NCBI GenBank assembly: GCA_041738655.1
Contig: JBGSPJ010000169.1
Location: forward strand, 1-55,869
Source of the DNA: Rhodothermales bacterium
GTDB lineage: Bacteria > Bacteroidota > Rhodothermia > Rhodothermales > JAHQVL01
Direction of reading: 5' to 3'
Length of the DNA: 55,869 nt
Shown: positions 29,477 to 42,964 of the stretch, piece by piece
Layout of the letters: each line of letters starts with the position of its first letter
Position numbering within the stretch: the first letter of the stretch is position 1
Program-made: the position numbers and the translations under genes
Notes under the pieces: generated by a model
Seen by the model: the letters and a program-made list of their open reading frames with translations, nothing else
What the model was told of the DNA's origin: nothing
Database searches by the model: none

Positions 29477-31903
29477 ATGTGGGAAACCCTGTCCCTTATG
29501 TTCATGCGTCGAACCTTTCTTTCCAACCACCGTGCAGCCGGCCTGGTCGAGGAGGATCTCTCCCCTTTTCACGCACGCCTGGCAGCCATTGGGGATCGAC
29601 TCGAGCCGCTGTCACGCGAGTCGTATGCCCGGCTCGAACAGCTGGCGGAGGGACTCAGCGTGCGAGCAAGGAACGGTGAACCCGCGGAATCGCTCCTGAT
29701 CGAAACGTTTGCACTCGTTCGCGAGGTGGCACACCGATGCCTGAGCCTGATGCCTTTCGACGAGCAAGTCCTCGCCGGAATCGCACTCCACGACGGTAAA
29801 CTCGTCGAAATGCAGACCGGCGAGGGAAAGACGCTGGCTGCCGTACTGCCGGCGACTCTCCTTGCCCTCGGCGGAAAGTGCCCTCATATCCTCACATTTA
29901 ACGATTACCTTGCCCGACGCGATGAACGCTGGATGCGTCCGGTTTTTCACTTCTTCGGGTTACGATCCGGCGCCATTCAACAGGGCTTGTCTCTCGATGA
30001 TCGCCGTTCGATTTATCGTGGAGATCTCGTGTATGCGACGGCGAAGGAAGTGGGATACGATGTCCTTCGCGCTCAGCTGGTTCGCGCACTTTCCGAACAA
30101 GCGCTCCAACCTCTATCCTTTGCCATCATCGACGAGGCGGACTCTATCCTTATCGATGAAGCACGCGTTCCGCTTGTCATAGCCGGACAACGTGCCGCTG
30201 CGGCAAGCCCGCACCAACTGGCGGCCCTATCGCGGCAACTGGCTCCGGGCCTACATTGGGAAACGGACGACCAGGGTCGAAACGTGCTTCTGACAGAAGC
30301 TGGAATGGATTGGATTGAAAACACCCTTCATTGCGGAGATCTTCATGCAGACGAAAACTACGCGCTGCTGACGGAAATCAATCTGGCCCTCCACGCGCAT
30401 GTCCTCCTAAAGCGCGATGTCGATTATATCGTTCGGGAAGGCAAGATCGAGCTGGTGGACGCCTTTACCGGTCGCGTCGTCGATGACCGCCGTTGGCCCG
30501 ATGGCCTGCAGGCCGCGCTGGAAGCAAAGGAAGAGCTACAAATACAGCCTGGAGGGCAAATTCTGGGTTCGATGACGCTGCAGCATGTCCTTGGGCTTTA
30601 CCCTCGCCTTGCCGGCATGACGGCCACAGCCCGGCCCGCCGCGGCTGAACTGGCACGCGTCTACGGCCTTCGCGTCGTTCCCATTCCTCCCCATCGACCC
30701 TGTCAGCGCATCGATCTACCGGATCTCATCTATACGACCCGAGCGGCCAAGCAACGCGCGCTCATCCAAGATATCGCCGCCAACCACGAACGGGATCGAC
30801 CTGTGCTCGTCGGCACGGCCAGTGTGGCCGAGTCGGAAGCGTTGGCCAATTTATTGCGCGATGCCGGCCTCGCCTGCCGCGTGCTAAATGCCCGAAACGA
30901 CGAAGAGGAGGCTGAGATTATCTCAAACGCCGGCATACCCGGCGCCATCACGATCTCAACGAACATGGCAGGACGTGGGACGGATATCCGGCCAGGCGGA
31001 GCAGATGAGCGGGAACGAGCACGTGTTATCGCCGCCGGAGGGCTGTATGTGATCGGCACGGGAAGGCACGAAAGCCGGCGCATTGACGACCAGTTGCGCG
31101 GGCGAACAGGGCGCCAGGGGGACCCGGGCACGTCTCGATTTTTTGTCAGCCTGGAGGATGAACTCATGGTCCGCTACGGCATCCAGGAGTTGATCCCTCC
31201 AAAGTGGCTTCCTGTCGATGACGACCCTGTACGTTTGCCCATGGTGCATCGCGAAGTCGATCGGCTCCAACGCATCGTTGAAGGGCAGAATCAAGAAATC
31301 CGACACACGTTATGGCGATATGCCGCTCTGGTCGAACAACAAAGAAAGGACATCCACGCCTGGCGACAGATGATCCTTTCGGGCGAAGTAGAGTTATCCG
31401 TTGGCCAGATGCGGCACCCCGATCACTTCGAAGAACTTTCGGCCCTTGCCGGCGAACGTGCGGTGCGCGAGGTGGAACGAGTGATCACCCTGCACCACAT
31501 TGACACCTGTTGGGCCGAACACCTCGACCTCGTAACTCAGTTGCGCGAAGGCATTCATCTGGTTGGGCTTGGTGGGCTCGACCCCCTCCACGAGTTCCAG
31601 AAGCAAATCGCCGCCGCGTATCGCGAGTTGCCCACGCGTATTGAAGATCGCATTGCCCACTCGATGGCGACCCTGGAATTCACAGAGCACGGCTTCGACC
31701 TCCAAAAAGCCTGTATCGACGCGCCTTCAGCCACCTGGACATACCTCGTCAACGACCGCGTGCTTTCCGAGCTTCAGCAGATGCTTTTTGGACAGGGTAG
31801 CTCGGCGTTTGCGGCTGGTGCTGTCCTGATGACCTGGCCTATCCTGCTCCTCTGGGGCGTGTTTCGCTGGGTGAAGCGGTGGCGAGCACTACCTGGCCTC
31901 TAA
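29477..31903 (+). CDS. SecA-family translocase ATPase paralogue with hydrophobic C-terminal tail
   Basis: SecA motor motifs occur in order: VEMQTGEGKTLAA, AIIDEADSILIDEARVPLVIAG, LAGMTATA, ISTNMAGRGTDI, GGLYVIGTGRHESRRIDDQLRGRTGRQGDPGTSRFFVSLEDEL. Scaffold helix WRYAALVEQQR. The protein ends with AFAAGAVLMTWPILLLWGVFRWVKRWR. The exact start among M1/M8/M10 is uncertain. Confidence 0.85.
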   Translation: MWETLSLMFMRRTFLSNHRAAGLVEEDLSPFHARLAAIGDRLEPLSRESYARLEQLAEGLSVRARNGEPAESLLIETFALVREVAHRCLSLMPFDEQVLAGIALHDGKLVEMQTGEGKTLAAVLPATLLALGGKCPHILTFNDYLARRDERWMRPVFHFFGLRSGAIQQGLSLDDRRSIYRGDLVYATAKEVGYDVLRAQLVRALSEQALQPLSFAIIDEADSILIDEARVPLVIAGQRAAAASPHQLAALSRQLAPGLHWETDDQGRNVLLTEAGMDWIENTLHCGDLHADENYALLTEINLALHAHVLLKRDVDYIVREGKIELVDAFTGRVVDDRRWPDGLQAALEAKEELQIQPGGQILGSMTLQHVLGLYPRLAGMTATARPAAAELARVYGLRVVPIPPHRPCQRIDLPDLIYTTRAAKQRALIQDIAANHERDRPVLVGTASVAESEALANLLRDAGLACRVLNARNDEEEAEIISNAGIPGAITISTNMAGRGTDIRPGGADERERARVIAAGGLYVIGTGRHESRRIDDQLRGRTGRQGDPGTSRFFVSLEDELMVRYGIQELIPPKWLPVDDDPVRLPMVHREVDRLQRIVEGQNQEIRHTLWRYAALVEQQRKDIHAWRQMILSGEVELSVGQMRHPDHFEELSALAGERAVREVERVITLHHIDTCWAEHLDLVTQLREGIHLVGLGGLDPLHEFQKQIAAAYRELPTRIEDRIAHSMATLEFTEHGFDLQKACIDAPSATWTYLVNDRVLSELQQMLFGQGSSAFAAGAVLMTWPILLLWGVFRWVKRWRALPGL

Positions 31904-31969: not shown

Positions 31970-32440
31970 ATGGAACGTCATATCACCGGTTTCCACCAGG
32001 ACGACGAGGGCGACTGGGTCGCCGAGCTCGATTGCGGCCATCATCAGCATGTCCGCCATAAACCGCCGTTTTTTGAACGCCCCTGGGCGGTCACCTCGGA
32101 GGGACGAGCCTCGATGATGGGCAAGCCTCTGTCCTGTGCGCTGTGCGACCGGATGGAGCTTCCCGAACATTTTGTCCTCCATCGCCACTCCCCGCTCTTC
32201 GACCAGGACACGGTACCGCCGGCGCTGCTCAAGGCGCACCAGCTCAAAGCCGGCGTATGGGCGCGTATCCATGTGATGGAGGGCTCGTTGAGGTACCACC
32301 TCGATACGCCATCACCCCGGACTTTCCTGGTCGACGCCGAGCACCCGGGCATTGTCGTTCCGGAAGTGCCGCACCACGTCGAGCCTGTAGGCAACGTCCA
32401 GTTCTATCTCGCCATCTACTCCAGGGTGAATACGGATTGA
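31970..32440 (+). CDS. DUF3565 + DUF1971 (TehB N-terminal-like) fusion protein
   Basis: ITGFHQDDEGDWVAELDCGHHQHVRHKPPFFERPWV fits the DUF3565 pattern. LPEHFVLHRHSPLFDQDTVPPALLKAHQLKAGVWARIHVMEGSLRYH fits DUF1971. Confidence 0.6.
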   Translation: MERHITGFHQDDEGDWVAELDCGHHQHVRHKPPFFERPWAVTSEGRASMMGKPLSCALCDRMELPEHFVLHRHSPLFDQDTVPPALLKAHQLKAGVWARIHVMEGSLRYHLDTPSPRTFLVDAEHPGIVVPEVPHHVEPVGNVQFYLAIYSRVNTD

Positions 32441-32441
32441 C

Positions 32442-33446
32442 TCACGGCGCCGCGTTGTCCAGGTCGTTGACATAGAGGAGGTGGACGTTGTCCCGGAAGT
32501 CGGCCGCGGCCGGCCGGCGCAGGAGCATTCGCAACGTCCGTTCGAAGTTGACGATCTCGCGCTGCTCCAACTCCTGAATCTCCTCGTCCGTCGCATTTTC
32601 AGGCACGGCCAGCATGATGGCCTCCCGCGCGGCCCGTAACGTCGTCGGATAATCGTATAACGCCACCCGACCATCCCTCAACGTGGAGTCCACAAAAAAC
32701 GGGAAGGTGCGAGACTTCGACTCCCCCTCGAGTTCCACGCGCGTCAACCGGTTCTGACGGACAAACCGGGCGAACCCTTCGTGCGAGGCATCGGAGCCTT
32801 CGTTTGGCAGCACGATGTTAAAATCAAAAATGTCCTGGGTCAGGTCCACCACCTGGTCTTCGATCCGGAAGTCTTTCATCCCATACAACTTCCGACAGAC
32901 CTGCAGCACGAAATTATTGAAGTAGCCGATGGCGAGTGATGTCGATGGAAGTAATGTGATCTCCAGGGTCTTTGCGGCACGTTCGATCGCCTGGACCAGT
33001 TGTGTGGCTACCCGGCTCAGCGATTCCTCGTACGACAGGCCCCGCTCGAGGGTCGCCCGCAGCTGGGTGATCCCGTTGAGATCCGATGGGAGCATCACCT
33101 CGCGCGGTTCGTCGCCGCGATTATCGGTGATGACAAGCATCAGGCTTTTTTTCCGCCCGAGTGCCCCCATGAACAGACCCAACTCGAACAGGATATTGGT
33201 TCGCGCCGAGTAGCCGACCTGCTGGCGTAGTTCGATCACGTCATCGGGGGTCGCGACCATCAGCGCGAAGTCCGACCGAAGCACCTCGCGTCGCAGCCCA
33301 TCCAGCGGATGGTCGCCGGGGAAAAAGGCATCCTCCCACACCTTCACATCGAGTCGATCCGCAACGAGTTGACCGATGGCGCGAGCGACGGGGAGGCCCT
33401 CGGTGGAGGATCCGATGAACAGGTTGGGGTTTTTGTCGATCGCCAT
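32442..33446 (-). CDS. TIR-STING fusion protein (CBASS-type cyclic-dinucleotide-activated NADase effector)
   Basis: N-terminal half: NLFIGSSTEGLPVARAIGQLV, DFALMVATPDDV and ARTNILFELGLFMGALGRKK match the TIR-like fold of the CAP12/PCTIR type, with the conserved Glu in FELGLF. C-terminal half: LLPSTSLAIGYFNNFVLQV, RTFPFFVDS, ALYDYPTTLRAAREAI and LEQREIVNFERTLRMLL are motifs I recognise from bacterial STING. From memory, Sphingobacterium faecium TIR-STING has LLPSTALAIGYYNSF and LDIPSTLSTIVESL. The same motifs are alignable to human STING GLAWSYYIGYL and YEYATPLQTL. Confidence 0.8.
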   Translation of the reverse strand: MAIDKNPNLFIGSSTEGLPVARAIGQLVADRLDVKVWEDAFFPGDHPLDGLRREVLRSDFALMVATPDDVIELRQQVGYSARTNILFELGLFMGALGRKKSLMLVITDNRGDEPREVMLPSDLNGITQLRATLERGLSYEESLSRVATQLVQAIERAAKTLEITLLPSTSLAIGYFNNFVLQVCRKLYGMKDFRIEDQVVDLTQDIFDFNIVLPNEGSDASHEGFARFVRQNRLTRVELEGESKSRTFPFFVDSTLRDGRVALYDYPTTLRAAREAIMLAVPENATDEEIQELEQREIVNFERTLRMLLRRPAAADFRDNVHLLYVNDLDNAAP

Positions 33447-33451
33447 ACGAG

Positions 33452-34606
33452 TTACTCCTTCAGGTCTATCAGGTGCAGGAACACCAGGTCGTTGTAGCTT
33501 CTCAGGTCGCCGGCGTCGTACGATGCAATCGTGGGGAGGATGGGCTGCATCAGTTGCGTACTGATATGGCCCGGGACACTTTGTGGGTGATCGTAGCTGA
33601 ACCGGTTGAACAGGCTCCTGACGAACACACTGTTCTCATCGACCGGCAGGGTGCGGACATTTTCAAGATAGGCGGGAAAGAGGCCATCCGATACGAGGTA
33701 GAACTCGACATTCGAGGTATAAAACACCCGAATGGTTTCATTTTGCTCGCGAAGGTATTCTCCAATCTCCCGCAGGGCATGCGGCCCTGCGAAATTACCG
33801 ACCACCGGCACGATCCGATCCTGCCGCTGCATGTCCCGGAGGTAGGCATAATCCTCGGCGCTGGCGAGGTAGTGCCCCGGCCGGCCCTCGAGGTCCTGCG
33901 CGAGCATGAGCTGGCGGAGGGTCGGGTAGTAGGCCCGGGGGGATCGGTTGTGGCTGGTGAACCGCAACTGGAGGCCGGCGGAGATAAATTGCCGATGGAA
34001 TCGCTCGATGGTAGCGAGTGAGGCCTCGTCGAGCGGAATACCAAAGGAACGGACAGCGTCCAGCACCCGGCGAACCGCTTCGTCCCCCACGTCTGTTTTT
34101 TGTGGCTGCGCCTCGATAGCGTCGAGGAGCGCGTCCAGTGAGACGGGCAGGTTTTCCGGTACCTCTCGCCCGACAAGAAGCGCTAGATACGACGCCCGAT
34201 CTTCCGACAGTTCGAAGAGCGCTTTGTAGAGGAGATGAAGCAAGAGGTTGTCGCGCCGGATATCCAGGATGATCGCGATGCTCGGACGCTGACGGGCGAT
34301 GTACGAAAAGTTCTGCCCCGGCCCAACGCCCAGATACGCTCCTCCCTCGATGCCTCGCCGGCGCATCGCTCCGAGCACGTGCAGGTAGGAGGTCTCGTTC
34401 GAGATCAGGTTGTCTGTGTCGAAGTACCCGCTCTCCTCGGAGAGCCGGCCTACCAGTTCGGGGAAGTCCACCGACCCGGTCGCGCCCCGTGCTTCAGCGA
34501 CGGCTGACGGCGCCGGCACCTCCTGGCCCCGGCAGGCCTGGGGGATCCCGGCCAGTAGCAAACATACTAGCCAGCTCAACCGCGCGTGCTTCTTCTGGTA
34601 TCTCAT
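33452..34606 (-). CDS. Secreted protein of unknown function with a Rossmann/SAM-methyltransferase-like GxGxG...D signature
   Basis: The track ORF starts at 34654. The ATG at 34606 gives a classical signal peptide, MRYQKKHARLSWLVCLLLAGIPQACRG/QEV. GAYLGVGPGQNFSYIARQRPSIAIILDIRRDN has MTase motif I plus an acidic residue at motif II spacing. I cannot name a characterised family. Confidence 0.7.
   Translation of the reverse strand: MRYQKKHARLSWLVCLLLAGIPQACRGQEVPAPSAVAEARGATGSVDFPELVGRLSEESGYFDTDNLISNETSYLHVLGAMRRRGIEGGAYLGVGPGQNFSYIARQRPSIAIILDIRRDNLLLHLLYKALFELSEDRASYLALLVGREVPENLPVSLDALLDAIEAQPQKTDVGDEAVRRVLDAVRSFGIPLDEASLATIERFHRQFISAGLQLRFTSHNRSPRAYYPTLRQLMLAQDLEGRPGHYLASAEDYAYLRDMQRQDRIVPVVGNFAGPHALREIGEYLREQNETIRVFYTSNVEFYLVSDGLFPAYLENVRTLPVDENSVFVRSLFNRFSYDHPQSVPGHISTQLMQPILPTIASYDAGDLRSYNDLVFLHLIDLKE
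33455..33460 (-). promoter_or_regulatory. Shine-Dalgarno AAGGAG for the TIR-STING gene, embedded in the last codons of the upstream gene
   Basis: Minus strand reads GAC CTG AAG GAG TAA CTCGT ATG. AAGGAG ends 8 nt before the ATG at 33446, and the intergenic gap is only 5 nt. Confidence 0.5.
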
Positions 34607-34654
34607 CCCGTTACTGGTTGAGCCGCCCATCCATGACCCCATCCGGTCGTTCAT

Positions 34655-34904
34655 CGACGCCCTTTTGATGATGAATAACGGCCTATAAAAAAGGAAAGAA
34701 TAGTGGCGGAAATAACTAAATAAGGGAGGCGCCTAAAACTGAGCAAACCGTGTCCTCATACGGCTTCTGATGCTCAAGAGCGTTTTATCAAGCACTGTTT
34801 TTTATAAGTCAAACAAAAACAACATGCTATGCGATACGATTTTCACTCTCTTTGGCGGAATTAACATCAGCCATCCATGTGCTTTAAATACAGTTACTTA
34901 GGCA
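34655..34904. other. AT-rich intergenic region upstream of the 33452..34606 / TIR-STING pair
   Basis: Hand count over 34681-34920 gives 96 G+C of 240 nt (40%), against visibly above 60% in the flanking genes. Contains A/T runs (ctataaaaaagg, ttttttataagtcaaacaaaaac). Confidence 0.8.
34784..34812 (-). promoter_or_regulatory. Candidate sigma-70-like promoter TTGACT-N17-GATAAA reading toward 33452..34606
   Basis: Minus strand reads gtTTGACTtataaaaaacagtgcttGATAAAacg. The match is by eye only and the organism's promoter consensus is unknown. Confidence 0.25.
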
Positions 34905-36213: not shown

Positions 36214-37809
36214 TTATCGAGCCCGCAACACCATCGTTTTTTCCTCTCCGGCGACGACTTCGAAGACGATCGACTCGTAGATCCCGGCTGGCCATCCTAC
36301 CGCATTGTACTGGCCTGGTATCAACGGTATCGAAAGGCCCGATTGAATCGCACGCCCCCGCTCGGTCGCCCCACGTCCCAGGAACACCCTTTTGTCCTCT
36401 TCTCGACTTCCATCGGCTTGCTGGTAGAGAAACGTCACCCGGCCAACAGGAACTTCGATCAGTACGTCTCCTCCTCGATCGATTCGAACCGCCGGACTCA
36501 GAACCGGAATCAACTCATTTTCCAAGTGTACATCGTAAACACCGGGTACGACATCCGCGCCATTGTTCATATGGACCTGGTATTTCTGTTCTCCCCCCTG
36601 CCAGAGGGTGTAATTGCCCCGCAAACGCTCGTCGGAGCCGGAGGCCACCATCCGAATAACGGCTCGCACCGTAGGGACAAGATCGAATAGAAGCTCCTTT
36701 TTATCGCCGGCGACAAACGATGCCTCGCGCTCGATCACATTATCCTGATTCGGTTGCGCACGGAAGGTATAGCTGCCCTCGTCGACGAACACCTCATCCA
36801 TCCAACGGAATCGAAATACTTCCCGATTGTTCTGAAGCGCAGTGATTGTACTACCCGCTACCGTTTCCCCCTCACTCGAGAACCGAGCGCGCACCGATGG
36901 AGGCTGCGCCACCTGGACGATCAGTTCTTCGTCTGCCTGTCCGGCAAGTGTAGCCTGCACCGTCACGGGTTTGTACAGCGTGCCATTTTGTGTCTTCACG
37001 CCAGCGACGAGCACATACGTCCCGGCCGGCGCCTGATTTCGACGATTGCTGCTCACCGGTACCGTTCCGTCCACTCCCTGGAGTTCGCCTTCGATCGCAA
37101 TCGGCTCACCGTTGGGGGTGACTCCCTTGAGCCAGAACGCCGCGTCACGCGGTTGTTCGCCCGGACCCGGTTGTGCTTCCAGGGATTCTCGAATGGACTC
37201 CAGACCAAGCGTGAGATCCATTCCGGAGGCTGCTTCGTGGTATGGAGTGCCGGCGGCATCGGCGATACATTGCAATGCCGCCGACTCATGATCTTCCACT
37301 CCAAAACCAACAACATGCACTTGAACGTCTATCCCGCGTGACTTCCAATCCCGTACCAGCGCGCACGGATCGGCATCACACGTCTCCACGCCATCGGTGA
37401 TCAGGATGATGTCTCCCTCGTTTTCACCGAAATCGGCCAGCGCCTCGGTGAGGCTGTAGGCGATGGGGGTCATGCCCAACGGATTTACATCCGCCATGAA
37501 CGTCCGTATACGAGCAGCGGCAACGGCCGGATCGGCAGCATCCGCAATGAGCTCCGAATCGCGACAATCCCCTTTTCTTCGGTGACCATACGCCCGAAAC
37601 GAAAGGACCGCATTCCCAAAGTCGCGCTCCAGAAAGTCGGTAAGAACGTCCCGCGCCACCTGGATCTTGTACGATCGATCGGGCAGTTGCCCCCACATTG
37701 ACCCGGATGCGTCGAACACGACATACACTTCACGCGCCCCCGATTGCGCGAGACTCATCGGTACGCAAACGCATGCGAGGAAGAGCGCTATTCCGAAACA
37801 TCTGATCAT
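36214..37809 (-). CDS. Secreted von Willebrand factor type A (vWA) domain protein
   Basis: Signal peptide. MIDAS motif VYVVFDASGSMWG, plus MTPIAYSL and IILITDGVETC. Long beta-rich C-terminal region. Confidence 0.8.
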   Translation of the reverse strand: MIRCFGIALFLACVCVPMSLAQSGAREVYVVFDASGSMWGQLPDRSYKIQVARDVLTDFLERDFGNAVLSFRAYGHRRKGDCRDSELIADAADPAVAAARIRTFMADVNPLGMTPIAYSLTEALADFGENEGDIILITDGVETCDADPCALVRDWKSRGIDVQVHVVGFGVEDHESAALQCIADAAGTPYHEAASGMDLTLGLESIRESLEAQPGPGEQPRDAAFWLKGVTPNGEPIAIEGELQGVDGTVPVSSNRRNQAPAGTYVLVAGVKTQNGTLYKPVTVQATLAGQADEELIVQVAQPPSVRARFSSEGETVAGSTITALQNNREVFRFRWMDEVFVDEGSYTFRAQPNQDNVIEREASFVAGDKKELLFDLVPTVRAVIRMVASGSDERLRGNYTLWQGGEQKYQVHMNNGADVVPGVYDVHLENELIPVLSPAVRIDRGGDVLIEVPVGRVTFLYQQADGSREEDKRVFLGRGATERGRAIQSGLSIPLIPGQYNAVGWPAGIYESIVFEVVAGEEKTMVLRAR

Positions 37810-37816
37810 ATGTTTC

Positions 37817-39541
37817 TCAGTGAGTCACGATCATCCGCTGGTCCGTTGCCTGACCGTCCACCTCGAGCCGATACAGGTAGGCGCCGGCGGACAAATTCCC
37901 GGGGTTGAACGAGATCTGGTGCGATCCGCCGGGGTATTCTCCTTCGACCATTCGCGCGACATGCCTGCCCAGTATATCGAATACATTAACCTTGACAGAA
38001 GCCGGCCGCGGCAGGGTGAAAGGAATCCAGGTGATGCTCGTAGCTGGGTTGGGGTAGTTCTGGCCTAGCTGAAATGTGGCTTCGCGATCCGGCTCGGGTA
38101 CGACGGAAACCGATCGTGCAATCTCATTTTCTCTCCCAAGAGCCCACAGGATGGCATTTTCCAGTAGGATATCGGCTACCTCGGTAACGACATTCCCCAC
38201 ATCGTCTCCGAGGAAAAAGCCTACGCGCCGCGCCGGCGCGGGCCCATCGTCCACAAGTGGTGCGTTCGCCTCGTACGTAAACACGGTAGCGCGCGAGGGA
38301 TCGAGTATGGAAGCGGCCACTACCGCAGCGGCCGACCCGGGCACACCGAATGCCATGGGCGCCAGCGCGTCGTAGACGTCAAATTCACCAGACGATCCAT
38401 TTGAGATCGGATGTGAATCCGCTCCGAGCATGAGGCGAGTTGCATCAGGTGTGACTCCGAAGTCAGATCCCGACTCGCCACCAGTCATACGTAAGAGAGA
38501 GAAAAACGCAGGGTCCCACGTCAACAGCGGTACTTCAACCGGAGACCAATCGCCTGAAAGCACTTGCGTGTCAATGGATGCCGAGACAACGATCAGCTCT
38601 CGTCCCGTCGCATCAGCTATCGAGACGGCCTCATCACTCATGATTGTCACGTCCAGAGCGAGGCCGGTCATTGCCTCCTGAACGAAGGCATCCGTCTCGG
38701 CGAGCGCGGTTGAATCATCGACCACGAACAGGACGCCGCCGTTCATACCCGTCTCACCCGGATCCGTCGTTTCAACGGTATAACTCACCGAGCCCCACTG
38801 CTGAAACACGAGGTCATACCCCATATGGGCGGTGACGCCCTCTTTTGTCACAAACTCGATTTCTTCTTCGGTGAATAGGAGAACGCCATTCTCGCTGGTG
38901 GCACGCGAAATCCGAAGCCTGAGCGCCGAGAAGGAGCCGGCGGGCGTCACGAGAGTCCCCCAGGCGTCAACCTCTTGTTGAACAGTGATCGTTCGCACCG
39001 TGGTACCGGTTGGGAGGGTGCTGGTCGTGGTGTGGGTCGACGCCCAACTACCGCCAAACTCCAGAGGAAACTCGTACACTACCTCGGCCGGCACATGTTC
39101 GATCTGTGCGAGACCCGGAGTCAGCGTTCCATGGAACCCGAACTGATTGGCTTCAACGCTATAAAACCCATAACTATCACCGGGTAATCCCGGGTTCAGA
39201 CTCGCCGGCACTTCGACCACGTATTCGGCCGCAGAAAAGGCAGCTACGCCGCCGCCGGGACCAGCGGAGTCGTAGTCGAGAAATGCGGTTGTTATAGGAT
39301 CCGGCGCATCGAACGTGAACGCCGTCAGATCGAACGTCTGGCTGGCGCCTGTTTGTGCGGCAAGCGTTTGTATCGCGAAATAGTCGGGGGTGAAACGCGT
39401 CGGAGAGGCCGTAAACGTTTCGGCATGGCGCGTAGACCCGATGGGCGGCTGGAAATCCGCTGACGTGAAGCTGATCTGCGCGCGTACGAGGGTTGGTGGC
39501 ACTACAAACGCGAGAAGGAGGAGCTGAAGCACTCTTTTCAT
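37817..39541 (-). CDS. T9SS C-terminal-target-domain secreted protein
   Basis: Signal peptide MKRVLQLLLLAFVVPPTLVRAQ. C-terminus FQLGQNYPNPATSITWIPFTLPRPASVKVNVFDILGRHVARMV...GAYLYRLEVDGQATDQRMIVTH is a typical Por secretion tail. Lies 7 nt upstream of the vWA gene. Confidence 0.75.
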   Translation of the reverse strand: MKRVLQLLLLAFVVPPTLVRAQISFTSADFQPPIGSTRHAETFTASPTRFTPDYFAIQTLAAQTGASQTFDLTAFTFDAPDPITTAFLDYDSAGPGGGVAAFSAAEYVVEVPASLNPGLPGDSYGFYSVEANQFGFHGTLTPGLAQIEHVPAEVVYEFPLEFGGSWASTHTTTSTLPTGTTVRTITVQQEVDAWGTLVTPAGSFSALRLRISRATSENGVLLFTEEEIEFVTKEGVTAHMGYDLVFQQWGSVSYTVETTDPGETGMNGGVLFVVDDSTALAETDAFVQEAMTGLALDVTIMSDEAVSIADATGRELIVVSASIDTQVLSGDWSPVEVPLLTWDPAFFSLLRMTGGESGSDFGVTPDATRLMLGADSHPISNGSSGEFDVYDALAPMAFGVPGSAAAVVAASILDPSRATVFTYEANAPLVDDGPAPARRVGFFLGDDVGNVVTEVADILLENAILWALGRENEIARSVSVVPEPDREATFQLGQNYPNPATSITWIPFTLPRPASVKVNVFDILGRHVARMVEGEYPGGSHQISFNPGNLSAGAYLYRLEVDGQATDQRMIVTH

Positions 39542-39712
39542 ATGGTCGCCCAGGTCTTATAATAAATATTCAATGAAAGCGAGGGGGGATCGCGTGGAAG
39601 GCCCGGCCCTCAAGGCAGACCTCGATCAGTGGGATATGTGTATTCCGTGAATCAGCCGGCTCATTATCATGGAATTTTATTCGTATTACCTTTTACAGAA
39701 TAGATCCTGGCG

Positions 39713-40282
39713 GTGCGGGCGGAGATGAGCGAAGGTGAAGTAACACGCCTCCTGGTCGCCTGGCGCGAAGGTGATACCCGTGCACTCGATACGTTGATGC
39801 CCTATGTGTATGATGAGTTACGCCGTCTCGCCCACGTACACTTGCTCAAGGAGCGGGATGGCCACACGCTGAGCACGACGGCGCTCGTACACGAGGCCTA
39901 TCTCAATCTGGCCGGGCAAGACCCTCTATATCTTGAGAATCGGAGCCATTTTTTCGCCATCGCCTGCCGCGTAATGCGGAGACTGCTGATCTGGTATGCC
40001 CGACGCCGGAAGAGTGGTAAACGGGGCGGCGGCTCGGAGCATGCCTCATTGGACACGGCGGCCGTGCTTGCCGATGACCGGGTTGAGGAACTGCTGTGGC
40101 TTGATCAAGCTCTGGGCAAGCTGGAATCGTTCGACGAACGCATGTGCCGTGTGGTGGAATGTCGTTATTTTGGAGGGCTCAGCGTGGAAGAAACCGCCGA
40201 GGTACTTGCGGTCTCTCCGGCGACGGTCAAGCGTGACTGGCAAACAGCACGAACATGGTTGCGCGTCGAACTGACCAGATGA
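39713..40282 (+). CDS. ECF sigma factor of the kinase-associated type (Sigma70_ECF / TIGR02999-like)
   Basis: EVTRLLVAWREGDTRALDTLMPYVYDELRRLAHVHL is the hallmark N-terminus of this ECF subgroup. Region 4 is LSVEETAEVLAVSPATVKRDW. The GTG at 39713 or the ATG at 39725 could be the start. Confidence 0.8.
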   Translation: MRAEMSEGEVTRLLVAWREGDTRALDTLMPYVYDELRRLAHVHLLKERDGHTLSTTALVHEAYLNLAGQDPLYLENRSHFFAIACRVMRRLLIWYARRRKSGKRGGGSEHASLDTAAVLADDRVEELLWLDQALGKLESFDERMCRVVECRYFGGLSVEETAEVLAVSPATVKRDWQTARTWLRVELTR

Positions 40283-40285
40283 CCT

Positions 40286-42964
40286 ATGACTCGCGAAACC
40301 TGGGAACGCGTTCGGATGATATTCGAGTCAGCGATTGAGCTCCCGGTGGCTCAACGAGACGGTTTTGTCCGCAAGGCGTGTGATGGCGACCCGGTGCTCT
40401 GGAATGAAGTCTCGTTGCTGCGGCTATCCGAGGAAAACGGCCGACGATTTTTCCTCGATGAGCCTATCCCATCCGCTGTTCGGGCAGAGATGATCGCGCT
40501 TTCTCCTATGGGCGCTATCGGCCCCTATCGAATCATTCACACGCTCGGGCAAGGGGGGATGGGCACCGTGTACCTCGCCGAGCGCATCGATGGGCTGGTT
40601 CAGCGACCGGTCGCGCTCAAAGTATTGCGTTATGTCTCGGCCAGCCCAGACCTTGCCCAACGATTTGACAGCGAACGACGGATCCTCGACCGGTTGAATC
40701 ACACCGGAATTGCTCGATTGATCGACGCCGGCGTCGTGTCGCCTTTGTCCGATGAGCCGCAGGCCGTGGCGTATCTGGCCATGGAATATGTGCCGGGCCT
40801 GCCCATTACGGACTACTGCATCAAGAATGACCTGTCCGTCGGGCAACGGCTCGAATTATTCCTGCAAATGTGTAAGGCCGTTCAGCACGCACATCAAAAC
40901 TTGATCGTTCATCGAGACCTGAAACCCTCCAATATCCTGGTCACCGAGACGGCATCCCCGAATTCGCCTGTGATCAAGCTGTTGGACTTCGGCATTGCCA
41001 AGCTTATCCAGCCCAACCCGGACGCGACAGAATTACAGACACGGCCAGGACAATCACGGATGACGATCGCATACGCCAGTCCAGAGCAGTTCCGTGGTGA
41101 GCCCGTGGCAACGCATTCTGATATCTATGCCCTGGGCGTGTTGCTGTACGAATTACTCACGGACAAGAGGCCTTATGTGCTGACGGGCCTGTCGCCTGGA
41201 GCCGTTGAAGCCTGTATTTGCGAACAGATCCCCCCTCTTCCCAGCCAGGTCGCCTACACGGATCGCATGAAAAGTCTTCGGGGGGACCTGGACACGATCG
41301 TGATGAAGGCCTTGCATAAGTCTCCTGCACGCCGTTACCAAACAGTTTTAGAGTTGCACGATGACATCCGTCGGCACCTTGCACTGATTCCCGTGCGTGC
41401 TCGTCCCGACAGTCGGTTGTATCGCGCCGCACGTTTTGTCCAGCGACACCGAGCCGGCGTCGTTGCCTGCGGGCTCATCCTATTTGCGGTGCTATTCGGT
41501 GCCGTGGCTACGTCCCTGCAGGCACGGAAAGCCGAGTATCGTGCGACACAGGTCCGAACACTGGCCACGACGTTGTTGACCGATCTTGATCTCGCTCTCC
41601 GCGATCTCCCAGGGGCCACCCGGGCGAGGGAGTTGGTTGCCGGCACGGCACTCCTCTACCTCGATAGCCTGGATCTGGGCAGCCAGGATACCGCATGGCA
41701 ACTCGAACGTGCGCGTGCCTACGACCTGCTCGCGCGTCACCAGGGTGACCCTCATTTTGACAACCTGGGCCGGTTGTCAGACGCGATGGCAAGTTATCAA
41801 CGCGCTTACGAAATACGCCTGGCGCTCTGGCATCAAGACTCCACCAATACCACGTACCGTCGGGCGCTCGCGAACAGCCTTGGCAACCTCGGCGTGATGT
41901 CCTCCTGGAACGGCAAAAACACGGAAGCCATTTCTCTCAGTAGGCAAGCCCTGACTGTATTGGCCCCTGTTGTGCTTGCCGACCCGTCGCCCACTGTTAC
42001 TCGCGACGAGTCTCGCCTGCGCGGCGAATTGGGCTGGTGGCTGATCTGGGAAGGAAGAACCGAAGAGGGGCTTCGCGAACTGCAGCAGGCCATGATCACG
42101 ATCGAACGACTGGCGGCGTCCAACCCCAACGATCTCGAACTCCAACTTGACCTCTGGCGAAACTACTGGTATCAGACCGATGGGCTTAAATTTTCATCCA
42201 AAGACACCGTTGCGCTGAATCTCCTCCAGCATAAAGCCATCCCCCATCTCGAACAGTTGGTTGTCACCTACCCGACCAATCCTCGAGCCCAATACGGCCT
42301 GCATACCGCTTTCTATTTCCTCGGCGAACTCTTTCTCGCACAAAACGACACCGCCTCGGCGCGCGTGGCGTTCCAGACCTCTCTTCAAACGGCTCGCAGG
42401 ATGGTCGAAGCGGATTCGTCCAACCGAAAAGCACATGAAGGACTGAGCTTTGGATTCCGCGCGTTGGGGCATCTGTATCGCGTTTCGGGAGCGTTCGAGA
42501 AGGCCATCGATGCCTACTCGAGCGACCTCGCCATACGCATTCGCCTCTATCATGACGACCCACAAAATCAGGAAGCGGCGAACGCCGTAAGTAATGCGTT
42601 CCGATTGCTCTGCCGAACCCGGTACGCCTCCAGGGATTTCGAAGGCGCTGTAGCACCGTGTAAAGAGGCCATCACGTGGTTAGCTCCGCAGGTGGACGGC
42701 ACATCCGTTCAAGGTGTCATCTGGGGAAATCTCGGTTTCAATCACGGTTGGCTGGGTATGTCACTCGCCGCACTGGCCGAGCAGACTGCGCAGCCGGCGG
42801 CGCGGCACCAGCTGCTCCTCGAAGCGTTGAACCATTTCGATCAGAGCCACGCCATCATGACCCAGTATTATCGGCAATCTGAGGGCAATGATGCCGCCTG
42901 GGAGTTTACAATGGACGAGCTCGTCTCAAGTCGAAACCGCGTGATCACTGGCTTACAGCCGTAG
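40286..42964 (+). CDS. Transmembrane Ser/Thr protein kinase with extracytoplasmic TPR-rich domain
   Basis: Hanks kinase motifs GQGGMGTVY, VALKVL, HRDLKPSNILV, DFGIAK and YASPEQ. TM segment AGVVACGLILFAVLFGAVATSL. About 480 aa of TPR-like repeats. Starts 3 nt after the sigma gene. Confidence 0.9.
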   Translation: MTRETWERVRMIFESAIELPVAQRDGFVRKACDGDPVLWNEVSLLRLSEENGRRFFLDEPIPSAVRAEMIALSPMGAIGPYRIIHTLGQGGMGTVYLAERIDGLVQRPVALKVLRYVSASPDLAQRFDSERRILDRLNHTGIARLIDAGVVSPLSDEPQAVAYLAMEYVPGLPITDYCIKNDLSVGQRLELFLQMCKAVQHAHQNLIVHRDLKPSNILVTETASPNSPVIKLLDFGIAKLIQPNPDATELQTRPGQSRMTIAYASPEQFRGEPVATHSDIYALGVLLYELLTDKRPYVLTGLSPGAVEACICEQIPPLPSQVAYTDRMKSLRGDLDTIVMKALHKSPARRYQTVLELHDDIRRHLALIPVRARPDSRLYRAARFVQRHRAGVVACGLILFAVLFGAVATSLQARKAEYRATQVRTLATTLLTDLDLALRDLPGATRARELVAGTALLYLDSLDLGSQDTAWQLERARAYDLLARHQGDPHFDNLGRLSDAMASYQRAYEIRLALWHQDSTNTTYRRALANSLGNLGVMSSWNGKNTEAISLSRQALTVLAPVVLADPSPTVTRDESRLRGELGWWLIWEGRTEEGLRELQQAMITIERLAASNPNDLELQLDLWRNYWYQTDGLKFSSKDTVALNLLQHKAIPHLEQLVVTYPTNPRAQYGLHTAFYFLGELFLAQNDTASARVAFQTSLQTARRMVEADSSNRKAHEGLSFGFRALGHLYRVSGAFEKAIDAYSSDLAIRIRLYHDDPQNQEAANAVSNAFRLLCRTRYASRDFEGAVAPCKEAITWLAPQVDGTSVQGVIWGNLGFNHGWLGMSLAALAEQTAQPAARHQLLLEALNHFDQSHAIMTQYYRQSEGNDAAWEFTMDELVSSRNRVITGLQP

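Follow-up and report, generated by a model that had tools for sequence, protein, structure and literature searches.

A conserved and strongly selected clade of bacterial TIR-STING genes without an adjacent cyclase raises a testable question: what activates these TIR-STINGs? One member of this clade is the gene 32442..33446 on the minus strand of a 55,869-nt stretch from a Rhodothermales bacterium (assembly GCA_041738655.1, contig JBGSPJ010000169.1, G+C content 60.6%), to which we refer as the window. Bacterial TIR-STING has been described as operonic with the cyclase CdnE, that is, as the receptor half of a two-gene cassette (PMC8748872, PMC9402430, PMC12421889). A preliminary interpretation of the window made from its letters, here called the sequence-only reading, had offered three explanations for a TIR-STING that stands without such a partner, namely an orphan sensor that responds to a signal produced in trans, a decayed module, or a new two-gene configuration formed with the gene directly upstream. 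We favor, at a rough probability of 0.62, a functional stand-alone TIR-STING that receives its signal in trans and in whose mechanism the upstream gene, encoding a DUF7790 protein, has no part. The gene and its parts are listed below, with the evidence for each in brackets.

32442..33446, minus strand: TIR-STING (Cap12-like) gene, 334 aa (Pfam, PADLOC, NCBIfam and PDB matches; dN/dS)
33057..33422, minus strand: predicted TIR NADase domain, aa 9-130 (7un8 alignment and column conservation)
32529..32948, minus strand: predicted prokaryotic STING cyclic-dinucleotide-binding domain, aa 167-306 (PF20300 and invariant columns)
32445..32528, minus strand: C-terminal tail of the TIR-STING with a P-x-A-A-x-F-R-D-N motif (hmmalign comparison)

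Pfam assigns aa 9-130 of the 334-aa product to the TIR family of CAP12 and Pycsar effectors (PF10137, 1.5e-23) and aa 167-306 to prok_STING (PF20300, 4.1e-23, with 137 of 137 profile positions aligned). The PADLOC model for TIR effectors of the antiphage signaling system based on cyclic oligonucleotides (CBASS), PDLC00729, matches at 1.4e-67, and the best solved structure is the filament of SfSTING (7un8, 6e-37, residues 8-316), with other Cap12 entries matching as well. The two halves proposed in the sequence-only reading, an N-terminal TIR domain that retains its catalytic Glu (E88, the counterpart of SfSTING E84) and a C-terminal bacterial STING domain, are hence borne out by profile searches. 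Identity to SfSTING is about 30%, and the two NCBIfam Cap12 equivalog models score 180 bits (NF050172) and 142 bits (NF050171) against a cut-off of 450 that neither reaches. Since these scores lie far below the cut-offs, the window protein represents a divergent subfamily and not an equivalog of Cap12 from the Cytophaga-Flavobacterium-Bacteroides (CFB) group.

We mapped the NADase residues by combining the 7un8 alignment with the residue list given for SfSTING (PMC9402430). All residues of the SfSTING pocket are kept in the window protein (F6 as F10, S10 as S14, W33 as W37, F37 as F41, L47 as L51, R78 as R82, N80 as N84, the catalytic E84 as E88 and D110 as D122). Class I bacterial STINGs, which are specific for cyclic di-guanosine monophosphate (c-di-GMP), carry an RX(Y/F) lid and an Asp that reads the guanine N2, and the class II lid is RXR (Ko et al., PMC8748872). 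The lid of the window protein, R246-T-F248, corresponds to R234-x-F236 of SfSTING and is of the class I form, the Asp is present as D265, and the alpha1 motif reads LPSTSLAIGYFNNF. Both the catalytic and the ligand columns are invariant in an alignment of 27 clade sequences and in one of 47 family sequences, and they are nearly so over 174 loci. No signal peptide or transmembrane segment is seen in the sequence, and the protein is accordingly predicted to be cytosolic. With a TIR domain that holds the catalytic Glu and the NAD+-pocket residues and a STING domain that holds the class I lid and Asp, 32442..33446 encodes, judged by architecture and residues, an intact, full-length TIR-STING.

SfSTING (Cap12 of Sphingobacterium faecium, from a CdnE-TIR-STING type I CBASS) thus shares with the window protein the two-domain architecture, the NADase residues, the class I lid with its Asp and the alpha1 motif. 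In contrast to SfSTING, the window protein has no adjacent CdnE, comes from a Rhodothermales and not a Bacteroidia host, and carries two additional elements. One is a clade-specific insertion of about 10 aa in the TIR domain (aa ~106-115), located directly before the PSDL loop that supplies D122 to the partner active site. The other is the P-x-AA-x-FRDN tail, which according to an hmmalign comparison most CdnE-linked TIR-STINGs lack and which the cyclase-less clade has in common with its sister group. It is speculation that the insertion and the tail could be regulatory. The TIR domain of the Pycsar effector PycTIR (8jsj) belongs to the same family PF10137 and also matches the window protein (PADLOC PycTIR model 8e-31, PDB 1e-14), but in PycTIR a cyclic-mononucleotide-binding domain takes the place of STING, and its partner is a pyrimidine cyclase.

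The gene that defines a CBASS operon, a nucleotidyltransferase of the cGAS/DncV-like kind (CD-NTase), is absent from the operon in question. With PADLOC we identified two families of STING-partner cyclases, a CdnE type (PDLC00784, 2e-140) and a DncV-like type that occurs with an E2 partner (PDLC00774, 5e-120). Pfam returns 0 families on the STING-linked CdnE type, and because Pfam lists therefore cannot exclude such a cyclase, we built our own cyclase hidden Markov models (HMMs) and confirmed them with PADLOC. Neither the CdnE nor the DncV-like HMM matches the six-frame translation of the window. When PADLOC was run on all 44 window proteins, kinase and ABC-ATPase families dominated the best 25 of 123 families, and the search was rerun without these proteins; on the resulting 38 proteins it gave one weak match, which is not a cyclase. 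The six proteins outside this run are the TIR-STING, a Ser/Thr kinase, UvrA, a SecA paralogue, a class-V aminotransferase and a RecF-like ATPase. None of the six frames of the window contains a GG[DE]EF-like motif, and neither Cap2/Cap3 (E1/E2/JAB) nor HORMA/TRIP13 was found in it with our own E2 HMM and PADLOC. The claim of the sequence-only reading that these 56 kb hold no CD-NTase, GGDEF or Cap2/Cap3 gene therefore stands.

We then compared the locus with other TIR-STING genes in a survey of 80 species-representative genome loci, 80 metagenome loci and targeted look-ups, in which the STING proteins were aligned and their partners mapped; neighbors were clustered over the 80 species-representative loci. 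About 100 loci have a CdnE or DncV-like cyclase no more than a few nt away from STING, and since these cyclase-linked loci were found in the same survey, the detection method works. A clear cyclase accompanies STING in 48 of the 80 species representatives and a weak candidate in 2, which leaves 30 without any, and about 18 of the 30 cyclase-less representatives have at least 3 kb of sequence on both sides. The window STING falls into a clade of about 17 non-redundant sequences that are 40-77% identical to it, and within ±10-kb flanks a cyclase is found in 0 of the clade loci. Neighbor-joining bootstrap support is 100% for a Rhodothermales trio, 97% for a core of 15 taxa and 76% for all 17 taxa. 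The clade spans several phyla and is old. Its neighboring genes all differ and comprise a CLC channel, TIR-WD40, NB-ARC/DUF4062, a His kinase with LytTR, and acetyltransferases, or a co-oriented gene is lacking altogether. Cyclase-less TIR-STINGs also form groups in Variovorax, Verrucomicrobiota, Cyanobacteria, Chloroflexi and Alphaproteobacteria, and all cyclase-less TIR-STINGs keep the catalytic and ligand residues. Isolates whose genomes carry an orphan STING include Variovorax robiniae KACC 18901, Catalimonadaceae JC749 and Nemorincola caseinilytica. A PADLOC search of 137 neighboring ORFs (230-520 aa, within 5 kb, from 40 cyclase-less loci) gave no cyclase among the matches listed, down to about 1e-22. 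The absence of a cyclase across the clade supports the first of the three explanations, the orphan sensor, and since the TIR-STINGs of the clade are encoded alone, the signal would have to come in trans.

One way to supply such a signal would be a split CBASS, with a dedicated CdnE-type cyclase located elsewhere in the genome, perhaps in another CBASS operon that shares its product. The ligand-binding residues of the window protein, which are identical to those of CdnE-linked STINGs, are in line with this arrangement, as is the sister group of the clade (L095-L099), which mixes cyclase-less and CdnE-linked loci and in which CdnE thus still lies beside STING. However, the immediate proximity of the cyclase in the roughly 100 canonical loci, its absence from all clade flanks as well as from the window, and the lack of a precedent in the literature searched lead us to regard a remote dedicated cyclase as rather improbable.

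To address whether the gene is under selection, we calculated the ratio of non-synonymous to synonymous substitution rates (dN/dS) according to Nei-Gojobori. The window STING gives 0.042 (dS ~1.0) against its 93% identical relative (L002) and 0.088 against its 78% identical relative (L006), which is indicative of strong purifying selection. The values for the DUF7790 gene, 0.10-0.17, are higher than those of STING. The second explanation, a CBASS leftover that is inert or on its way to a pseudogene after loss of the cyclase, would account for the missing cyclase and for the outright loss of STING in one related lineage (L174, see below). It is refuted by a dN/dS of 0.04-0.09, sustained over a dS of at least 1, together with an intact frame and with catalytic and ligand residues that are kept in every member of an old clade spread over several phyla; we give decay next to no credence. 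The G+C content at third codon positions (GC3) of the STING gene (0.77) equals that of its neighbors (0.74-0.76), and the gene is hence a long-term resident with no compositional trace of recent transfer. In tblastn searches of plasmid and phage collections, only TIR-domain (PycTIR-like) matches appeared on plasmids and none on phages, and no mobile TIR-STING was found.

The third explanation concerns the gene upstream, the features of which are listed here together with the remaining elements of the locus.

33452..34606 (longest ORF to 34654), minus strand: DUF7790 / LIC_10091-like predicted lipoprotein gene (PF25046, Foldseek, synteny)
33455..33460, minus strand: AAGGAG, a Shine-Dalgarno-like hexamer 8 nt 5' of the STING ATG (sequence, junction comparison)
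34655..34904, minus strand: AT-rich intergenic region 5' of the DUF7790 gene (sequence)
31970..32440, plus strand: convergent DUF3565 + TehB-like (DUF1971) gene (domain matches, synteny)

The longest upstream ORF (33452..34654, minus strand) comprises 400 aa and contains an internal ATG at 34606, which is the likelier start because it yields an n-h-c signal peptide, MRYQKKHARLSWLVCLLLAGIPQAC, that ends in Cys25. The product belongs to DUF7790 (PF25046, 7.9e-37, 127.5 bits against a cut-off of 23), in whose family consensus the A-C lipobox is kept. This family counts more than 5,400 proteins at 1e-5 among 8,000 candidates scored, with members in Rhodothermales, Gemmatimonadota, Longimicrobiales and others, compared with 377 TIR-STING relatives found. 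We modeled the structure with AlphaFold (AF2) from a 43-sequence alignment and obtained a predicted local distance difference test score (pLDDT) of 86.7; a single-sequence model with a pLDDT of 32 was set aside. Foldseek returned a clear match of the model to 6ulo only (1.4e-13; 2.8e-14 in a profile search), an uncharacterized protein of Leptospira interrogans. This lipoprotein of the LIC_10091 family shares the fold and Pfam DUF7790 with the window protein, but identity is only about 16%, and the NCBIfam LIC_10091 lipoprotein model scores 66 bits and does not reach its cut-off of 350.

There is also a faint Foldseek likeness of the model to class I methyltransferases (E ~1e-2, TM-score 0.2-0.45). 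A nicotinamide N-methyltransferase was considered, as TIR releases nicotinamide, and was rejected with a query TM-score of 0.22-0.29, an E-value of ~1e-2 and a protein that is exported. A CD-NTase or other nucleotidyltransferase, as marked by a Pol-beta-like fold with a GS...[DE]x[DE] active site, was likewise rejected, since neither PADLOC nor the Pfam nucleotidyltransferase families match the protein, which has no PADLOC match of any kind, and its predicted fold is unlike theirs. The sequence-only reading was thus right that the upstream product does not resemble a nucleotidyltransferase. Of the secreted, Rossmann-like protein it had described, the secreted part agrees with signal peptide and lipobox, and for the Rossmann-like part the fold comparison offers little beyond matches of E ~1e-2. 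We judge the neighbor to be a predicted exported lipoprotein, encoded by a resident chromosomal gene and a bystander to STING.

The history of the pair is informative in this respect. In the window, in the 93% relative (P0001, L002) and in the 78% relative (P0002, L006), STING lies 4-5 nt 3' of the DUF7790 gene, and the Rhodothermales synteny runs from the aminotransferase over DUF7790 to STING, with UvrA close by. The gene downstream differs between these relatives although the order and spacing of DUF7790 and STING are kept. In a further Rhodothermales metagenome-assembled genome (MAG; L174, GCA_041391505.1) the order is AT5-DUF7790-S8-DUF3565-UvrA without STING, and tblastn detects no STING remnant in the 90-nt spacer between DUF7790 and the convergent S8 peptidase gene. 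Identities to the window genes are as follows.

L002: UvrA 94.6%, aminotransferase 87%, DUF7790 83%; STING present
L174: UvrA 86.6%, aminotransferase 77%, DUF7790 73%; STING absent
L006: UvrA 81.9%, aminotransferase 70%, DUF7790 62%; STING present

Since the identities of L174 fall between those of two STING-bearing lineages, they imply that STING was lost there and DUF7790 kept; an old insertion of STING after DUF7790 followed by loss in L174 appears the most parsimonious course of events on these comparisons. DUF7790 is the gene resident at this site, and STING can be dispensed with. The convergent DUF3565 + TehB-like gene is a bystander too, since L174 has it without STING and L006 lacks it.

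At the junction itself, the spacer between the DUF7790 gene and STING in the window is 5 nt (CTCGT), the hexamer AAGGAG (33460..33455) forms the final two sense codons (K-E) of the DUF7790 gene, and 1 nt separates the stop of STING from that of the convergent gene. The ORF coordinates, the 5-nt gap, the hexamer, the 1-nt convergent gap and the motifs quoted in the sequence-only reading were all found as described. The DUF7790 protein ends in ...IDL* in L174, in KE* in the window and L002 and in KP* in L006, so that two extra codons are present only where STING follows, and AAGGAG occurs in the window and L002 and not in L006. Because the tight spacing leaves no room for a promoter between the two genes, DUF7790 and STING are likely co-transcribed, and the STING gene looks as if it had settled behind a resident transcription unit, at its 3' end. 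A promoter serving both would lie in 34655..34904, the sole non-coding space available for it. A scan for sigma-70 promoters and terminators found none above shuffle expectation, with the sigma-70 consensus not expected to fit this phylum. The two genes had been taken as almost certainly co-translated; spacing and hexamer are real, but AAGGAG is kept in the 93% and not in the 78% relative, and translational coupling through it would be lineage-specific.

These observations bear on a two-gene module in which STING would depend on the DUF7790 protein to supply, import or gate its signal. The spacing and order retained in the 93% and 78% relatives next to a differing downstream gene, the two-codon extension confined to genes followed by STING and the hexamer in two of three lineages would all be accounted for by such a module. 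On the other hand, the DUF7790 protein is predicted to be outside the cytoplasm and STING in the cytosol, the fold is not that of a nucleotidyltransferase, and the DUF7790 family is far larger than that of the TIR-STING relatives. Moreover, DUF7790 persists without STING at the same locus in L174, and a homologue in Rhodocaloribacter litoris stands in an unrelated context. The pairing recurs in the two Rhodothermales relatives, but no clade member outside the Rhodothermales lineage has a DUF7790 neighbor. Tight gene spacing by itself is no evidence of a functional pair. The new two-gene configuration thus finds no support in view of the size of the DUF7790 family, its retention without STING and its absence beside clade members elsewhere, and we consider it very unlikely.

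For the stand-alone TIR-STING, homology to the characterized system SfSTING suggests how the protein may work. The STING domain would bind a 3'3' cyclic dinucleotide as a dimer, most likely c-di-GMP, and binding would close the STING lid. The closed protein would polymerize into filaments that assemble a composite TIR active site, and this site would hydrolyze NAD+ and lead to cell arrest or death in the manner of abortive infection. The activating nucleotide would arrive in trans, its source being perhaps a distal cyclase, a diguanylate cyclase of the host or an element that invades it. That the signal is independent of a dedicated cyclase or of foreign or host origin is possible, but we would place it somewhat below even odds. 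We regard a broader proposal as less probable than not: cyclase-less TIR-STINGs may be widespread, selectively maintained one-gene sensor-effectors that fire on c-di-GMP or a related nucleotide from another source and have no dedicated CD-NTase. Such a class would include the window clade and several others, about a third of the TIR-STING loci sampled, and some of its members may use alternative partners such as a deaminase-like protein found in six loci. Its signal might be made by an invading phage or mobile element, or by a diguanylate cyclase of the host that infection activates.

Variovorax, Verrucomicrobiota, Cyanobacteria and Chloroflexi normally use GGDEF signaling, and the many cyclase-less TIR-STINGs in these groups, together with a window locus that is not a defense island, raise the question if the protein could be a c-di-GMP-responsive NAD+ hydrolase of host second-messenger physiology (dormancy, stress) instead of a factor in phage defense. 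A regular-expression search for GGDEF/EAL over about 2 Mb of STING flanks gave no match, which says nothing about host c-di-GMP signaling. E. coli is poisoned by SfSTING expression, and purification cultures are given nicotinamide to limit the TIR toxicity (PMC9402430); recombinant bacterial STINGs co-purify with the c-di-GMP of the expression host (PMC8748872). For this reason constitutive exposure to housekeeping c-di-GMP should be lethal, and orphans in GGDEF-rich phyla are a real puzzle. STING is furthermore patchy among close relatives, as is typical of defense genes, and some orphans have TIR-WD40, NB-ARC or type III CRISPR genes as neighbors. Taken together, a role outside immunity seems quite unlikely to us.

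Several points weigh against the functional stand-alone sensor that we favor. The NADase activity and the ligand specificity are predicted from conserved residues, and the NCBIfam scores below cut-off together with the protein's own insertion and tail mean that its regulation or ligand could differ from those of SfSTING. A very divergent cyclase could escape the two family HMMs and PADLOC, of which the best 25 families were considered. Finally, the 4-5-nt spacing to DUF7790 is kept over a divergence of dS >1, something for which a pure bystander model has no need.

The nearest parallel to a receptor without a cognate cyclase comes from eukaryotes. Stand-alone STINGs of choanoflagellates and fungi recognize the bacterial-type ligand 3'3'-c-di-GMP with high affinity, independently of cGAS-like receptors (cGLRs), and are proposed to sense the signal of another organism (bioRxiv 10.1101/2025.09.04.674280). 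Unlike the window protein they are eukaryotic, with transmembrane or PNP modules as effectors in place of a TIR NADase. That study (bioRxiv 10.1101/2025.09.04.674280) describes no counterpart in bacteria, and a full-text literature search for orphan or stand-alone bacterial STING found no description. If the one-gene class proposed above exists, it would be this bacterial counterpart. The question of what activates the cyclase-less TIR-STINGs bears on how housekeeping c-di-GMP signaling can be reconciled with a lethal NADase gated by c-di-GMP, on whether immune effectors can listen in on signals that invaders or other parts of the genome produce, and on the origin of stand-alone STING receptors as in early eukaryotes. 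The roughly 100 STINGs that Morehouse and colleagues reportedly found in CBASS operons in 2020 are said to come mostly from Bacteroidetes lacking GGDEF signaling. Defense-system finders that require a cyclase will miss the cyclase-less TIR-STINGs.

The survey also revealed individual loci that deserve mention. Three Variovorax species (L020, L026, L070) carry a cyclase-less TIR-STING with the R-D-F lid and the catalytic Glu intact, flanked by a GT2-like glycosyltransferase gene. As a betaproteobacterium, Variovorax is expected to have abundant GGDEF signaling, and for this reason its orphans are good test cases for the toxicity paradox. In Verrucomicrobiota a family of about 415 aa is encoded beside STING (L036:11434-12705 and L056:8150-9535) and shows weak DncV-like HMM matches (1e-6 to 3e-9); this family may represent a divergent clade of CD-NTases not recognized by standard models.

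A cytidine/dCMP-deaminase-like protein (PF00383, MafB19/Bd3614-like) is encoded co-oriented with and directly beside a cyclase-less TIR-STING in six loci (L013:11055-11717, L032:10950-11711, L046:7679-8503, L061:2190-3005, L041:8704-9912 and L050:1771-2466). The six loci represent six different STING sequence clusters, with gaps of -40 to 279 nt between the two genes. Four of the six proteins have a signal-peptide or lipoprotein-like N-terminus, and PADLOC matches none of them. This protein may be an alternative partner of orphan STINGs. In one of these loci, from a Saprospiraceae MAG, a type III-A CRISPR module (Csm3, Csm4, RAMP; L046:3133-6685, assigned with PADLOC and Pfam) lies directly 5' of the TIR-STING and the deaminase gene, which puts a cyclic-oligoadenylate-producing system beside a STING effector. 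Two clade members in Bacteroidota are found just 3' of genes for large STAND-like proteins, one a TIR_2 + WD40 protein of 1,066 aa (L009:6576-9776) and the other a DUF4062 + NB-ARC + TPR protein of 707 aa (L011:7861-9984). This suggests that some orphan STINGs reside in defense islands, unlike the window copy.

Within the window, the block 36214-42964 stands out with a lowered GC3 (0.61-0.65) and encodes a 531-aa protein, a protein with a Por_Secre_tail, that is, one sorted by the type IX secretion system (T9SS), an extracytoplasmic function (ECF) sigma factor and a Ser/Thr kinase of 892 aa that contains TPR repeats, the latter being the source of many PADLOC 'PD-T4-6' matches. This block is probably not related to defense. 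A SecA paralogue of 808 aa is encoded at 29477-31903 on the plus strand, with SecA_DEAD, PP_bind, P-loop and SW domains and a GC3 of 0.63 that lies below its neighbors. It is reduced to fragments in L002 (aa 381-530 and 771-805), and neither L174 nor L006 has it at this position. Between DUF7790 and UvrA lies a variable hotspot in which STING, the S8 peptidase and the SecA-like gene come and go.

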